Source of the DNA: Bdellovibrionales bacterium
Lineage (GTDB): Bacteria; Bdellovibrionota; Bdellovibrionia; Bdellovibrionales; JAUICD01
Reading direction: 5' to 3'
DNA length: 64,000 nt
Assembly: GCA_965262715.1 (NCBI GenBank)
Contig: OZ253553.1
Coordinates: 2,176,001 to 2,240,000 of the forward strand
In this document: piece by piece, positions 11,840 through 59,049 of the stretch
Position numbering within the stretch: position 1 is the stretch's first letter
Layout of the letters: each line of letters starts with the position of its first letter
Program-made: the position numbers and the translations under genes
The notes under the pieces: model-generated
What the model was told of the DNA's origin: nothing
Seen by the model: the letters and a program-made list of their open reading frames with translations, nothing else
Database searches by the model: none

Positions 11840-11896
11840 AAAATGTCGTGAAAAATTGTAAAAATGTCGCAATAACAGTTTTCACGACAATTTTAA
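11840..11896. repeat. 57-bp palindromic element, copy 1 (TGTCGTGAAAA...TTTTCACGACA)
   Basis: Second copy at 15564-15620 with 4 differences; internal inverted repeat. Confidence 0.85.
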
Positions 11897-11944
11897 TGTA
11901 TAATATTCACAGAATCTAAGAAACCTCAAAAAAGGGTTATATCA

Positions 11945-13356
11945 ATGTCTAGAAAAAGTATCACTCAAAAACAAGAATTAGAAAGTATTAGAGATATTTT
12001 AAAAAGTTTTCCGAGAGGGGCTTCTATAGAAGAAATAGAGCAAGAAACCGCAGGTTTAGGCCTAAAATGGACTCGAAGAACACTACAAAGGCGTCTTACT
12101 CTTTTATCTCAACGTAAAGAGATTGTTACAAAAGGCCTATCTCGCAGTATGAGATACTATCTGGCTGAATTAGCAAACAAACCTAAAATCACTACAGATG
12201 AATTAGATATACCGCTTTCAAGATCTGCTCAAAATCTCCTGGATTTAGTTAAACGTCCACTATTAAAAAGAGAACCTGTAACTTACCATCGTTCATTTTT
12301 AGAGTCTTACCAACCTAATAAAGATAGTTACCTAACACCTGCCCAAATAAAAAAATTAAGTCAACTGGGTCGAATCCAAACTCCTATTCAACCTATTGGT
12401 ACATACTCCAAGGATATTTTAGACCGCTTGTTGATTGATTTTTCATGGAATTCTAGTCGCCTTGAAGGAAACACTATTCTTTGCTAGAAACACAGAGACT
12501 ACTAGAATTTAATGAACGAGCTGATGGTAAACAGGCTAAGGAAGCTCAAATGATTCTTAATCATAAATATGCGATAAGATATCTTATTCAACCACCAGAC
12601 GAAAATATACCACCAGATCAAAATATAGGATTTAATTGCTATACAATTCTCAATTTACACGCATTGTTATCTAATAACTTATTATCATCTCGTGATTCAG
12701 GCACTTTACGTAAGAAGATTGTGAAGGTTAGCCATTCCACTTATAAACCATTAACAATTCCACAGATGATATCTGAATTATTTGATCTTATACTAAAAAA
12801 AGCAAGTCAAATTAAAAATCCCTATGAACAATCTTTTTTTATTATGGTTCATCTCCCTTATTTACAGCCTTTTGCAGATGTTAATAAACGTGTCTCTCGT
12901 TTAGCAGCAAATATTCCTTTTATTAAAAATCAGCTAGCACCTTTATCATTTATTCATGTACCTCAAGAAATTTACGTACAAGGCCTACTAGGTGTATATG
13001 AAATGAGACGTATATTTTTATTAAGAGATGTTTTTTTATGGGCTTATGAGCATTCTGCTAAACAATACAACGTTTTAAGTGATGTAGATAGCGGAAAACC
13101 AGATATTTTCCGTCTTAGATATCATAAAAAAATTACTCTACTTATATCCTCTTTAGTTCATCAAGCATTAAAACCAAAAAAAGCTTCAGTTAAAATTAAA
13201 TTAGAGTCAAAAAAACTTCCGAAAACAGATCAAACAAGGTTTGTAGAAATAATTGAGTCAGAGCTTTTGTCTCTACATGAAGGTAATTGTGCACGTTACA
13301 ACATTCAACTCTTAGAGCTTGAACATTGGAAAAAAATTTGGTCAAAAAAATCTTAA
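11945..13356 (+). pseudogene. HTH-Fic family protein with a single-base frameshift at ~12475 (real or sequencing error)
   Basis: SWNSSRLEGNT continues in another frame as (Y)SLLETQRLL; Fic motif QPFADVNKRVSRL; N-terminal HTH-like RRTLQRRL. Confidence 0.85.
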
Positions 13357-20670: not shown

Positions 20671-20830
20671 GGAAACATTTCCTTAATACGCTATTAAGGA
20701 ATGAAAAGATTCTCTTTTACTAAAAATGAACGGATTTTCTAGGCAATATCTTCCTGGGGCCGATGGTATAAACTTAGGCATTGTCAGAAATAGCCTTAAA
20801 AGAATAATCCAGCTCATTTTTAGTGAAACA
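20671..20830 (-). repeat. Diverged copy of dispersed structured repeat family A (reverse orientation)
   Basis: TTTCCTTAA...GATTCTCTTTTACTAAAAATG...TTTCTAGGCAAT...ATTGTCAGAAA...CATTTTTAGTGAAACA matches the reverse complement of the 158-bp unit. Confidence 0.75.
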
Positions 20831-20862
20831 AAAGTATATTTCAGTTTGAGTGAAACAATTTA

Positions 20863-22523: not shown

Positions 22524-22879
22524 AGGGTAGTAGCTCAGCTGGTAGAGCAACGGACTTACAAATCCGTATCGCGGGTTCGACTCCTGCCTGCCCTTTTTGA
22601 CAAACAAAATGAAGGGTAGTAGCTCAGCTGGTAGAGCAACGGACTTACAAATCCGTATCGCGGGTTCGACTCCTGCCTGCCCTTTTTGACAAACGAAATG
22701 AAGGGTAGTAGCTCAGCTGGTAGAGCAACGGACTTACAAATCCGTATCGCGGGTTCGACTCCTGCCTGCCCTTTTTGACAAACGAAATAAAGGGTAGTAG
22801 CTCAGCTGGTAGAGCAACGGACTTACAAATCCGTATCGCGGGTTCGACTCCTGCCTGCCCTTTTTGACAAACGAAATAA
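22524..22879 (+). repeat. Tandem array of four tRNA-Trp-derived pseudo-tRNAs (89-bp period; starts 22524, 22613, 22702, 22791)
   Basis: Each copy keeps all four stems of the downstream tRNA-Trp but has loop CTTACAAA, variable region ATC and no GCCA end. Confidence 0.93.
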
Positions 22880-22955
22880 AGGGTAGTAGCTCAGCTGGTA
22901 GAGCAACGGACTCCAAATCCGTAGGTCGCGGGTTCGACCCCTGCCTGCCCTGCCA
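22880..22955 (+). tRNA. tRNA-Trp(CCA)
   Basis: AGGGTAG/CTGCCCT acceptor, loop CTCCAAA, G73 plus CCA, 76 nt. Confidence 0.96.
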
Positions 22956-25664: not shown

Positions 25665-27617
25665 CCTGAGTTTGACAGTTGCGAAAATAAAGTTGAGTTA
25701 TTTTAGTTAGTTACAGTGGATGTGTGATTTTGTACCACTACATTTTGATTTTGTGGTAGAGATTTAAGAGATTGTTTGTAGGTTTAAGTAGATTCAATTT
25801 TAAGTTGTTTTGATGGGATCTTAACTCCTATAGCTTTAAATACATCAGCGTTATTGCCATAAATATCTGTTCTTATCCAAATAGTTTTGTTTTTATATCT
25901 GACAGGTATAGCTCGTACTTCTTTCAGCTTTGACATAGCTTCCGCTACACTCAATGGCCTTGACTTTATTCTCTTGTCTGTGATCGCTTTATCTTTTAAT
26001 GTGATGTTTCTTTGATGTAACTTCTTTGCAAAATAAGCCTCACATAAGTAAGATAAAAAACACACAACTAAATGACCTAATATCCTCTTATCTGTCCAGT
26101 GGAACATAGGACGTGTCTTTAATGTACCCTTCAACTCTCTAAATGAATTCTCTACCTTCCATAATTGCTTATAGTTCATTATAATCTCTTCAGAGCTTAA
26201 ATCTGTGTTTGTAATTATTCCAAAAAAACCATCTGTCCTCTCTGATTGTTCTATAGCTGACTTATTTAAAGTAGGCTTGCCTTTACTCTTAGGATGAACA
26301 ATATACTTCTTATAATTACTATTAGATAAAAAAGATCTTGTGCTTATGGACTTCTTTGATAATTGAGCTTCTATCTTAGATAGAATATCTTCTCTTACTT
26401 TCTTATCTCGTTCTGCTCTCTTTCTCGACCAGGTAATTATACAACGATCATTATTATAGCTTGTCTCGTATATAGCTAAATCTTCATTTATAAATTTAAA
26501 ATTCTTTAAATTGTATATCTCTGCATGACGATCCTTTAATAAACCTAGCTTTAATCCTACTATAAATTCATCTCCCTTTGCTTTTAATGATTGGAGATTC
26601 TCATTAGAAAATAAACCTCTATCTCCTACTAATATAAATCTTCTGATCTTAAACTTCTTTTTTAGCTTCGTCATAACTGAAGGTATTGTTTTACCTTCAA
26701 ATGTATTCCCAGGATAAACATCAAAGCCTAAGGGCATACCTTCTGTATCTACTAAAAGTCCAAATACCACTTGTGTGCAATCACTCCTCTTCTCTTTGCT
26801 ATAACCAAACCTTCGAAGATTATCTAAATCCTCACGGGTACTCTCAAATCTCAATGTCGTTAAATCATACAAAATAACATCACACTCATTGAAAAAACTT
26901 AATTGAGACTTACCTCGCATATAAAGAGTCTTCTCTATATCTTCTTTATGCTTACTTAGAATATCTAAAGAACGATAAATGTCTTGAAGATGAAGCTCCC
27001 CTTCTAAAAAATCAGGATAAAATAACTTCTGCCAGTGTGAAAATACTTTAAGCTTAGAACAAGGCTCTACAAAACGACTTATAACCAATGTAAAAATAAT
27101 CTTAACAAAATCAAATTGCACTTTACGATGCTTCTGTTTTAAATCTGTTAATAATCTATAGAGATTTAATTGTTTAAAAATAGTATCTATTATAAGCAAA
27201 GGACCTAAAATAAAAGTGTCTTTTACATCAATCTCTTTTAATAACTTACTAGCAGGAATTATCTCTAACTCTTTAGATAATACTTCTAGAAGCTTCTTCA
27301 AGTTAACTTCCTTATCCGCGGCTTTACCTAAAGACATTAGAATCCTTTGCTTCACTTGAGAACCTAATCTGTAGCTCTCAACAAGATGATAATATATGTC
27401 TCCTCTCGGATTTCTTGTAGACCTTATGAACATAAAAATACATTACAAGAAAAATATAAAAAATAAAAGAAAATAAGGTATATGACGCGTAGTGTATGAT
27501 AAATAAGTACACTACACTTTTTGACCAAAATACAAACACAATAACCGCTAATGACTATAAATACAACATTCCTTGAAAAAAATATCACGAAAATTCAAAT
27601 TAAGTGTCAAACTCAGG
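25665..27617 (-). mobile_element. IS1634-family insertion sequence, 13-bp perfect terminal IRs, 94-bp flanking direct repeats (25571-25664 and 27618-27711)
   Basis: CCTGAGTTTGACA at 25665 and TGTCAAACTCAGG ending at 27617; identical 94-bp flanks. Confidence 0.92.
25784..27433 (-). CDS. IS1634-family DDE transposase
   Basis: YYHLVESYR, YDLTTLRFES, GYSKEKRSD..QVVFGL, GDRG, YKQLWKVENSFRELK..L.TRPMFHW. Confidence 0.93.
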   Translation of the reverse strand: MFIRSTRNPRGDIYYHLVESYRLGSQVKQRILMSLGKAADKEVNLKKLLEVLSKELEIIPASKLLKEIDVKDTFILGPLLIIDTIFKQLNLYRLLTDLKQKHRKVQFDFVKIIFTLVISRFVEPCSKLKVFSHWQKLFYPDFLEGELHLQDIYRSLDILSKHKEDIEKTLYMRGKSQLSFFNECDVILYDLTTLRFESTREDLDNLRRFGYSKEKRSDCTQVVFGLLVDTEGMPLGFDVYPGNTFEGKTIPSVMTKLKKKFKIRRFILVGDRGLFSNENLQSLKAKGDEFIVGLKLGLLKDRHAEIYNLKNFKFINEDLAIYETSYNNDRCIITWSRKRAERDKKVREDILSKIEAQLSKKSISTRSFLSNSNYKKYIVHPKSKGKPTLNKSAIEQSERTDGFFGIITNTDLSSEEIIMNYKQLWKVENSFRELKGTLKTRPMFHWTDKRILGHLVVCFLSYLCEAYFAKKLHQRNITLKDKAITDKRIKSRPLSVAEAMSKLKEVRAIPVRYKNKTIWIRTDIYGNNADVFKAIGVKIPSKQLKIEST

Positions 27618-35197: not shown

Positions 35198-35343
35198 CTC
35201 TGTTTCACTAAAATGCATCTGACGTCACTTTCTGGCGATAACCCTGATGGCTCCATCAGAAAATGGTTATCGCCTAGAAAGAAAGATGCATTTTAGGAAG
35301 GAGACTCTCCTCATTTTTTAACAAAATGTTAAGGAAATTTTCC
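35198..35343 (+). repeat. Dispersed structured repeat family A copy
   Basis: CTCTGTTTCACTAAAATG...CACTTTCTGGCGATAACC...GGTTATCGCCTAGAAAG...ATGTTAAGGAAA. Confidence 0.85.
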
Positions 35344-35685
35344 ATTTATTACTTACATCTTCAAGAAATTGCTGACTGCCTCAAAAATCCGTTTATTTTG
35401 AGTGAGTTTGTATAATGCAAAACTGGTATCTTTTTTAAAACTTTTATCTCTAGTAGCATTTTTGAGATGGCTTCTATATATAATACGCGGACGCAGGTCA
35501 TAAAACCTGCCCGCACCCACTAGTCGAATCCAGTGGGGATGTTATCATTTATCTTCATCTACACTTTAAAGTTGTCAAATATTTTATTTAGAATAATATT
35601 TTTCCCTTTTAAATTTAACTCAAAGGGTTTCTTTAATTTTCAAATGGGATCATTTTAAAATAAGCCATATTTCAGAGAAATACTT

Positions 35686-36301: not shown

Positions 36302-36450
36302 ACAAATCACCTAAATCTTTATAGTAAGTTAAAATTGAATACTTTAAGCCAAAGACGAGATATTCCGCAGAGTCATCGCTGTCTAAGCGATGGCTCGAGG
36401 ACTTCGAGGCTTGGCTTAAAATATTAAATCAAAGCTTTCAAAGATTTTTT
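36302..36450. repeat. Dispersed palindromic repeat family B, copy 1
   Basis: Matches 58662-58810 with a shared core (GACGAGAT.TTCCGCAGAG...CTCGAGGACTTCGAG) and covarying stems. Confidence 0.85.
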
Positions 36451-36568
36451 CCTTGTTTTTTCTAAAAAAACAACACATCCCTCGTCTCTTAACATAATGT
36501 TAAGGAAATCCTGTTCTTATCTATTCTATCTTCTCTACTTCTTTTAGCCTTCTTATATAATCCAATCT

Positions 36569-36721
36569 CTCTGTCTCACTTAAAATGAACCTGCCTCTGG
36601 CAGCTTTTGGATAGTTAGCATGAAGGCTCACGCCTTCAATAAAATGCTAACTATCTCAAAAATCCGTTCATTTTAAGTAAACAGATATCCCTCGTCTCTT
36701 AACATTATGTTAAGGAAATCC
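36569..36721 (+). repeat. Dispersed structured repeat family A copy
   Basis: CTCTGTCTCACTTAAAATG...CCTCTGGC...TGAAGG/CCTTCA...CATTTTAAGT...CCCTCG...ATGTTAAGGAAA. Confidence 0.8.
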
Positions 36722-56772: not shown

Positions 56773-57587
56773 CTCTGTTTCACTAAAAATGTCTCTGGCC
56801 TCTGGCCACTTTCTGGCAATAAGCCTGAAGGGTAATACCTTCAGAAAAAGCTTATTGCCTAGAAAGAATGAAACATTTTTAGTAACAAGAGAATCTCCTC
56901 GTTATTTAATATAATGTTAAGGAAAATTTCCTCTGTTTCAGTAAAAATGTCTCTGGCCTCTGGCCACTTTCTGGCAATAAGCCTGAAGGGTAATACCTTC
57001 AGAAAAAGCTTATTGCCTAGAAAGAATGAAACATTTTTAGTAACAAGAGAATCTCCTCGTTATTTAATATAATGTTAAGGAAAATTTCCTCTGTTTCAGT
57101 AAAAATGTCTCTGGCCTCTGGCCACTTTCTGGCAATAAGCCTGAAGGGTAATACCTTCAGAAAAAGCTTATTGCCTAGAAAGAATGAAACATTTTTAGTA
57201 ACAAGAGAATCTCCTCGTTATTTAATATAATGTTAAGGAAAATTTCCTCTGTTTCAGTAAAAATGTCTCTGGCCTCTGGCCACTTTCTGGCAATAAGCCT
57301 GAAGGGTAATACCTTCAGAAAAAGCTTATTGCCTAGAAAGAATGAAACATTTTTAGTAACAAGAGAATCTCCTCGTTATTTAATATAATGTTAAGGAAAA
57401 TTTCCTCTGTTTCAGTAAAAATGTCTCTGGCCTCTGGCCACTTTCTGGCAATAAGCCTGAAGGGTAATACCTTCAGAAAAAGCTTATTGCCTAGAAAGAA
57501 TGAAACATTTTTAGTAACAAGAGAATCTCCTCGTTATTTAATATAATGTTAAGGAAAATTTCCTCTGTTTCAGTAAAAATGTCTCTG
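56773..57587 (+). repeat. Tandem array of 5 x 158-bp family A units plus a 25-bp partial unit
   Basis: Units start at 56773, 56931, 57089, 57247, 57405 and 57563; only one difference seen (CACT in unit 1, CAGT in the rest). Confidence 0.96.
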
Positions 57588-58467: not shown

Positions 58468-58630
58468 CTGTTTCACTAAAAATGCCTTTTGCCTCTGGCA
58501 ACTTTCTGGCATTGCCCTCCAAACTGGCTTACGCCGTTTGACAAATAGGGCAATACCTAGAAAGCATAAGGCATTTTTAGTAAGGAGACTACCCTCGTCC
58601 CTTTACAAGATGTTAAGGAAAATTTCCTCT
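58468..58630 (+). repeat. Dispersed structured repeat family A copy
   Basis: CTGTTTCACTAAAAATG...CCTCTGGCAACTTTCTGGC...CCTAGAAAG...CATTTTTAGTAAGGAGA...ATGTTAAGGAAAATTTCCTCT. Confidence 0.87.
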
Positions 58631-58661: not shown

Positions 58662-58810
58662 ACAAATTACCTAAATCTTTAAATAGCTTATAAGAATTGA
58701 TGCATAAGTTAAAGGACGAGATCTTCCGCAGAGAAATTGCTATTGGCAATTTCTCGAGGACTTCGAGAACTTAACTTATGCATCAATTCAAAACTTTCAA
58801 AGATTTTTTT
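58662..58810. repeat. Dispersed palindromic repeat family B, copy 2 (followed by a partial A-like end to ~58865)
   Basis: Same length and core as 36302-36450. Confidence 0.85.
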
Positions 58811-59049
58811 CTCTGTTTTTTCTAAAAAAACAGCACATCCCTTAACTCTGGCCACTTTCTGGCATGGCAGAAATCGCTTCCCGGCAACAGTTTACCTGTT
58901 TTCCAGAAAAAGATAATGGAAGTTCATTGCTCGAGGGCACTCTGCCATTAGTGAAAAACCCTGCCAAAAGACACTACTAATATATGCAAATATTTTGCAG
59001 CAAGGCCCATTTGATGTATAAATATCAGTTAAAGGTTATAAAATATTGG

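Follow-up and report, generated by a model that had tools for sequence, protein, structure and literature searches.

The tandem array and the copies in the window

The window analysed here is a stretch of 64,000 nucleotides corresponding to positions 2176001–2240000 of the source genome (G000), which consists of one contig of 2.94 Mb with 33.6% GC. The taxon label is given by best match: judged by sequence, the closest relative of the transaldolase encoded in the window is probably that of a Bdellovibrionales genome (64% identity). At 56773–57587, the window carries a tandem array of a non-coding repeat, here called family A (TRF: period 158, 5.2 copies, 99% matches). The array consists of five 158-bp units plus a stub that repeats the first 25 nt of the unit; unit 1 differs from units 2–5 at one base. 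The family A copies of the window and the modules attached to them are as follows:

56773..57562, minus strand (= folded strand): five head-to-tail full family A copies with a 158-bp period (TRF, depth, HMM)
57563..57587, minus strand: 25-nt sharp-end stub, the direct repeat bounding the array; matches the genome-wide stub norm of 25–27 nt
20676..20831, plus strand: diverged full copy with the plus strand as folded strand, ~30 nt before a tRNA gene (HMM)
35198..35340, minus strand: full copy without the side hairpin (HMM, alignment)
35352..35405, minus strand: partial copy, then the right-hand part and terminal repeat (35463–35475) of a separate TA-flanked MITE
36477..36510, minus strand: family A tail fragment, preceded by a family B module (36351–36453)
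36569..36720, minus strand: full copy (HMM)
58468..58624, minus strand: full copy upstream of the transaldolase gene (HMM, folding)
58690..58865, no strand assigned: family B hairpin module and a weak family A stub (58818–58865), giving an A-linker-B-A′ mosaic

A first-pass annotation of this DNA had described five tandem 158-bp units and dispersed copies at 20671, 35198, 36569, and 58468. All four dispersed copies were recovered by a profile HMM, and the 20 stem strings quoted in that annotation are all present among the window copies; the copy at 20671 is the most diverged (64.7 bits) and contains none of these strings verbatim. Between this copy and its neighbouring tRNA gene there is a further short stub that resembles an end. 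The five tandem units and the length of the array are borne out by read depth: the collapsed 172-nt repeat contig has depths of 15, 65, and 53 in three short-read runs, against 2.6–3, 11.8–13.6, and 9.3–12.2 in its flanks, a ratio of ~5 that corresponds to approximately five copies and excludes an assembly artefact, although the runs may include the source sample and their agreement is therefore no independent support. Because the array is flanked by a direct repeat of the first 25 nt of the element, slippage or unequal recombination would suffice to produce it, and the rolling-circle amplification suggested earlier for the head-to-tail copies is probably not needed.

The window also contains an array amplified without family A, namely five tandem tRNA genes at 22524–22952 with an 89-bp period (four genes at 54.7 bits and the last one at 67.6 bits).

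Copy number and distribution

A first profile, built on five window copies, gave 486 matches in the source genome (280 full length, 225 distinct), and a refined HMM gave 503, of which 310 are full length. Together, these occupy ~62 kb, or 2.1% of the genome and 6.8% of its non-coding DNA, and family A is contained in 27 of the 36 non-coding tandem arrays. The earlier description of a family both dispersed and tandemly amplified thus holds on both counts, with an extent that is genome-wide rather than a handful of copies.

A pattern search of 390 genomes of the class returned 230 matches in G000, 273 in a genome of the same genus (G001; 2.57 Mb, completeness ~90%), and seven in a third genome (G004). 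One or two matches in each of 23 further genomes of the class are similar to those of a reversed-pattern control and were judged to be background. Copy anatomy and counts for G001 come from its first 400 kb, with family profiles alone covering the remaining ~2.1 of 2.57 Mb; these 400 kb contain 136 full copies, or 6.6% of the DNA, a higher density than in G000, and extrapolation suggests ~870 copies in the whole genome. The G004 copies sit on three small contigs (C1, C4, and C11) that are 85–91% identical to G000, including an S10 ribosomal operon. The other G004 contigs sampled are ~65–73% identical to G000 or have no match, and the three contigs are therefore read as binning contamination, i.e. 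as probably mis-binned rather than representing a third genus. As far as this pattern search reaches, family A appears to be limited to one Bdellovibrionales-like genus.

Beyond the class, 58 pattern matches on viral contigs yielded none confirmed by HMM (0/58), and two strict patterns had no match on metagenome contigs, which is weak evidence of absence. Comparison with Rfam gave no family at gathering score, and the literature consulted, mainly openly accessible texts without supplements, holds no description of family A or of the cassette link described below. Family A is a real, genus-limited, structured selfish repeat that has apparently not been described before.

Three other non-coding repeats share parts of this landscape. 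Family B, a second branched hairpin repeat (58690–58815 and 36351–36453 in the window), has 41 BLAST matches; 37 of 51 cluster members adjoin family A, and a related motif occurs in the right end of an IS30-like element. The TA-flanked MITE accounts for 196 terminal-repeat motifs in G000 (e.g. 11849–12178; also 35463–35475 in the window), where no IS630 transposase was found, and hardly occurs in the first 400 kb of G001. A third repeat, represented by G000:C1:2471010–2471251, forms an 86-member cluster and adjoins family A in six of these 86.

A covarying fold of one strand

The fold is a three-way junction composed of a 13-bp stem (P1), a 5-bp side hairpin with a conserved 3-nt loop (P2), and a 16-bp stem with one bulged base (P3), which a bulge of ~5 nt separates from the apical P4. 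On the minus strand, this core is preceded by a 40-nt 5′ domain, the sequence of which is conserved and shows no linkage to it. Three nested covarying stems had been described from the window; they are kept, but the description was incomplete, as a fourth, strongly covarying element, the side hairpin, turns the structure into a three-way junction. The ends, stated not to be inverted repeats of each other, do form a weak one (eight of 12 bases in the array unit).

In folding calculations, copies of family A are predicted to fold far beyond chance, with z = -8.1 (minus strand) and -8.7 (plus strand) for one array unit as RNA and z = -8.9 for the 58468 copy as DNA. Covariation was assessed on 138 copies that have a mean identity of 71% after removal of redundancy at 95%. 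Of the twenty column pairs that covary most strongly, nearly all are Watson–Crick, some with all four pair types, and 5214 of 5520 stem cells are Watson–Crick. Within a 30-sequence alignment, 31 of 42 pairs show two-sided change, a value reached by none of 500 shuffles, and 96.8% of cells are paired as opposed to 80.4% when shuffled and 34–47% with slid partners; these counts and shuffles ignore the relatedness of the copies. With that qualification, the covariation is very strong and supports selection on a single-stranded fold, as had been proposed.

Mismatches identify the strand. On the plus strand, A.C outnumbers G.T by 107 to 35 (p = 1e-9), which indicates that the fold belongs to the minus strand, the reverse complement of that described at first. 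The bulged base of this strand is A in 137 of the 138 copies. The apical loops of 110 distinct G001 copies include 93 tetraloops, all of them GNNA (55 GNRA and 38 GNYA) with no purine preference at position 3, and those of 184 G000 copies are purine-biased (98 GNRA, 17 GNYA, and 41 other tetraloops). As d(cGNNAg) is named as a stable DNA tetraloop class in the title of Nakano 2002 (cited in the reference list of PMC2275088), the G001 loops lean towards ssDNA; those of G000 are compatible with RNA.

With hundreds of copies present in either orientation, a single structured RNA gene, one of the readings offered before, is unlikely. No core resembling the hammerhead ribozyme consensus was seen in the alignment of family A.

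Ends, target sites, and genomic behaviour

The 3′ end of the minus strand (...GTGAAAC) is a sharp junction that mostly lies before AG or AA, i.e. CT or TT on the other strand (209 of 302 ends in G000 and 120 of 164 in G001). The other end is ragged, with 3–27 extra nucleotides, lineage-specific tails, and a possible loss of 0–40 nt of target; the tails show no copy-specific complementarity to their own element or flank. Target duplication was found neither in 197 copies with unique flanks (no identity diagonal) nor in comparisons of empty with filled sites, and the classical MITE reading fails on this point; such flank duplications as do occur are mostly tandem arrays. Empty sites do exist: one MITE position could be compared with nine paralogues, one site on a G004 contig with G000, and four-helix-bundle ORFs likewise. 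Older copies have also been targets of nested insertion (17 cases in G001 and five in G000), mostly in the P2 loop and with removal of 3–40 nt of target. Sharp-end stubs stop at P2, measuring 25–27 nt in 46 of 54 cases in G000 and 26–27 nt in 42 of 61 in G001.

Copies are intergenic, only one of 228 clusters lying inside an ORF, and these clusters show no replichore bias (116:112; skew is noisy in this IS-rich genome). No orientation bias relative to transcription was seen in co-oriented gaps (38:29, p = 0.33), nor any bias towards genes genome-wide in G000; a 5′-leader or riboswitch role, suggested by five window copies, was rejected as the pattern vanishes genome-wide. Nine of 39 tRNA genes have family A within 60 bp, and insertions are seen in genes, in a CRISPR array, and in the repeat itself. 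The CRISPR copy is located at the trailer end of an array of 28-bp repeats, between the last repeat and a degenerate terminal one (G000:C1:476700–490650), and this repeat-element-repeat unit is found on its own at 476.7 kb and 490.4 kb.

Within each helix, the arms are linked to each other (normalized mutual information 0.67–0.90), whereas most different helices are unlinked (0.12–0.44). In the orthologous copy between rpsQ and rplN, the inner hairpin differs between a G004 contig and G000, having been replaced while the flanks remain 90% identical. Both observations point to ectopic conversion between copies. The median nearest-neighbour identity of the copies is 89%, and because identical copies at distant loci occur only within larger duplications, present-day mobility is putative.

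The search for a mobilizing gene

No candidate mobilizer had been recognized in the window. There is in fact an IS1634 transposase gene at 25665–27617, the ends of which are unrelated to family A. This intact element encodes a 549-aa transposase, has 13-bp terminal repeats, is one of ~21 close copies, and is inserted within a duplicated 60–70-bp flank. The whole source genome is rich in insertion sequences, with clusters of 26, 21, 15, 13, and 11 near-identical transposase-like ORFs read as IS30, IS1634, IS5, IS256, and IS3, an assignment confirmed by a family model for IS1634 only; G001 has only three DDE_Tnp_1 matches.

The proposal of a repeat mobilized in trans stands insofar as family A is non-autonomous; the HUH enzyme named as an example finds no counterpart, as no RAYT or Y1 gene fits. 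More generally, the genes that had been proposed as partners flanked by the repeat (RAYT, TnpA (Y1), IS110, or RT) include none that fits. No RAYT was found in G000, G001, or G004, and RAYT-like loci in G002 have no family A copy. No Y1 gene was found in G001, and the single TnpA of G000 was rejected as it is an IS200 gene with hairpin ends of its own; a Y2 search gave no match even in control genomes and thus carries no weight. G001 has no RT detectable by Pfam profile or with the G000 RT protein as query, and no match to IS110, IS630, or IS1182 (DUF772). G000 likewise yielded no IS630 or IS1182, and none of nine listed IS end pairs matches family A. G000 does encode a group II intron RT and a retron RT. 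The latter (L178:1282–3054, at ~2.65 Mb) is a retron St85-type effector–RT fusion in one 590-aa ORF and sits behind a tRNA gene and a family A copy.

A primase-polymerase search produced no fitting mobilizer gene, and no integron integrase was found at cut-off. GIY-YIG profiles have one match per genome, in a 610–650-aa frame read as UvrC. The tyrosine recombinases, one XerD-like and one short, are not flanked by family A; the short one (~185–200 aa, stand-alone, catalytic domain only; G000:C1:892939–893397, G001:C1:2047873–2048310, and G002:C76) also occurs in the non-carrier G002. Rpn-like nucleases (~33 loci in G000) are not enriched near family A (5/38 versus 295/2175). Insertion driven by Cas1 was dropped since G003, a non-carrier, has Cas1 as well and the CRISPR copy occupies the trailer end; Cas1 profiles match six times in G000 and five times in G001, some matches being fragments of one gene. 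Finally, neither G000 nor the first 400 kb of G001 contains an autonomous version with a mobile ORF between family A ends.

Association with four-helix-bundle cassettes

Genes of a four-helix-bundle protein family (PF05635/TIGR02436; PDB relative XCC0516, 2gsc), which presumably resembles DGR Avd, number 19 in G000 and 14 in G001 and are wrapped in 7–8-nt microrepeats (heptamer arms). The resulting cassettes are multi-copy and transposase-less in both carrier genomes and are physically interleaved with family A. A family A copy is found ≤450 bp from 12 of the 19 G000 cassettes, against a background of 16% of genes (Fisher p = 5e-6) and 18% of non-coding positions, and at all 14 cassette loci of G001, against 26% of random and 43% of non-coding positions. 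Microrepeat fields have a copy ≤150 bp away in 21 of 23 cases in the first 400 kb of G001 (background 25%) and in eight of 25 in G000 (background 11%). In our reading, the G001 cassette would begin with the first 18 nt of the repeat in six of 14 loci, and a full copy would follow in most. Several G001 cassettes have both termini, these 18 nt and a terminal full copy, in common with the repeat.

Several findings speak against a mechanistic tie. In approximately five of the G000 loci, a common insertion falls at or close to a single site, and family A interrupts the cassette ORF at several loci. The gene is present in 52 of 151 genomes of the class, and a family A copy accompanies none of ten loci in G004 and none of 20 loci from four other genomes. 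In view of its position beside tRNA genes as well, family A may simply prefer hairpin-rich targets. In some genomes, the genes form divergent head-to-head pairs with a common leader region (G025:C165, G025:C124, G374:C25, and G021:C34).

How family A may multiply

We tentatively favour, with slightly less than even confidence, the reading of family A as an interspersed selfish repeat that is non-autonomous. Each new copy would arise by copy-in of the minus strand as a single-stranded intermediate, most likely ssDNA, the fold being recognized by a structure-reading nuclease or ligase, either of HUH/RAYT type or of an unknown kind, that has been lost or acts in trans. Insertion would begin at the sharp end and often halt at the side hairpin, leaving the 25–27-nt stubs, and imprecise resolution of the far end would leave it ragged. 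Later ectopic recombination would mix helices, and short direct repeats would drive local amplification, as in the array at 56773–57587.

Several observations weaken this proposal. Family profiles reveal no candidate enzyme in G001, the genome richer in copies, and the purine-biased loops of G000 fit RNA equally well. Y1 transposases are not known to insert with a ragged end and target loss, and the presence of both in family A speaks against a Y1 route. Elements of the IS200/IS605 type show a lagging-strand bias, and its absence here (116:112) speaks against that route also. According to the accessible text of PMC8266576, RAYT cleavage takes place at a CT next to the folded REP, whereas the inverted strand is left intact; the CT of family A, on the strand opposite the folded one, makes a RAYT route less plausible.

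A retroelement of SINE-like type seems unlikely, if worth serious consideration: a minus-strand RNA, trimmed at its 3′ end ~7 nt past P1, would be copied by target-primed reverse transcription, possibly aided by an Avd-like protein, and would share the machinery of the cassettes. The fixed 3′ end and ragged 5′ end of the folded strand, the 3′-terminal stubs, and the target loss without duplication are as expected, as are the tolerance of G.U, the GNRA excess in G000, the two RTs of that genome, and the co-location with cassettes and heptamer fields above background. Against this, neither the Pfam profile nor the G000 protein detects an RT in G001, the loops of which are GNNA rather than GNRA. 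The co-location itself is open to objection, as cassettes occur without the repeat, the repeat breaks cassette ORFs, some G000 loci share one insertion, and tRNA genes are neighbours too.

The same objections bear on a reading that we consider improbable, in which an undescribed copy-in system without a transposase would move both the cassettes and, as a non-coding passenger, family A; the protein would bind the folded strand, and a polymerase of host or phage origin would write it into CT/TT targets. The termini that repeat and cassettes have in common in G001 are in its favour, and if the tie were mechanistic, it would provide a first function for this widespread protein family.

We regard it as distinctly improbable that family A is a domesticated functional RNA or DNA structure (a stabilizer, terminator, protein-binding site, or ribozyme) under host selection, for which spread by recombination would be secondary. 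That 97% pairing is maintained in nearly all copies, most of which should be neutral, would be explained, and so would the retention of orthologous positions between G000 and the 85–91% identical contigs while inner sequence was swapped. However, the balanced orientation relative to transcription, the insertions into genes, a CRISPR array, and the repeat itself, the restriction to one genus, and the lack of an Rfam match or visible hammerhead-like core all argue otherwise.

That family A derives as a MITE from a DDE insertion sequence, or escaped as the inner module from the TA-flanked MITE of G000, is largely refuted and very improbable. The weak terminal inverted repeat would fit, and 47 of 403 matches do lie between terminal repeats of the TA-flanked MITE, which has a homologous inner hairpin, but the other 356 lie outside the terminal-repeat pairs found, and the first 400 kb of G001 combine 136 full copies with only two terminal-repeat motifs. 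Besides the missing target duplication, matching IS ends, and IS630 or IS1182, DDE enzymes need no single-strand fold. In the least probable reading, template-switch repair of quasi-palindromes, together with conversion, would have produced the covariation incidentally, without selection on the fold. The exchange of helices as cassettes and rampant local amplification could be cited for it, yet palindrome repair would erase the bulged base, junction linker, and 5-nt bulge that persist in both genomes, and both wobble and loop identity depend on the strand.

For the search for the enzyme, hundreds of copies in two closed chromosomes, rich covariation, a defined folded strand, and mapped junctions, stubs, and empty sites make family A a ready substrate. 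New here are the folded strand, the junction anatomy, the verification of the array, and the association with four-helix-bundle cassettes, in a 150-nt repeat that seeds three quarters of the non-coding tandem arrays of its genome.

Relation to known systems

Integron attC sites have a strand-specific fold, an extrahelical base, and stems of variable sequence, and family A is like them in each of these features; unlike them, it has no gene cassettes or integron integrase at cut-off, its ends are unpaired, and no G|TT crossover is seen at empty sites. The four-helix-bundle cassettes differ in that they carry a gene and are widespread without family A. In contrast to elements derived from IS200/IS605, family A has no ends in common with a TnpA element, no two precise ends, and no lagging-strand bias. 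With the MITEs Correia/NEMIS, RUP, and Nezha, as far as the accessible text of PMC3184786 describes them, it shares being short, non-coding, stably folding, and high in copy number, but its terminal inverted repeat is weak, and it lacks a target duplication and an insertion sequence with matching ends.

The closest mechanism is that of REP/BIME/REPIN elements with RAYT, on the evidence of the available portions of PMC6006769, PMC8266576, and PMC3733652. Like REP and BIME, family A is a high-copy, intergenic, strand-specific bulged hairpin that forms mosaics and has a junction CT and no duplication. It differs from REP, which measures 20–40 nt in these sources, in its 150 nt and three-way junction, in the absence of a repeat-flanked RAYT gene, and in the position of CT on the opposite strand. 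The alignment columns of the folded strand contain no GTAG or GTGG 0–2 nt 5′ of the hairpin; a GTAG-like word lies on the non-folded strand, inside P1.

By description, the closest analogue is bcr1 of the Bacillus cereus group, which the accessible text of PMC3184786 presents as ~155 bp long, intergenic, lineage-limited, and found at non-conserved positions, with a branched fold showing compensatory changes, 5-bp direct repeats, and demonstrated transcription, and terms a special class of mobile sequence. The size of ~155 bp, intergenic location, lineage limit, non-conserved positions, mobility, and fold with compensatory changes are common to both; compared with bcr1 as described there, family A is without 5-bp direct repeats, one of its ends is ragged, and its copies form nested mosaics and tandem arrays. 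Family A bears on the question of how structured bacterial repeats without a transposase partner (bcr1 and RAYT-less REPs) multiply: it works like bcr1 or REP/BIME elements but belongs to neither.
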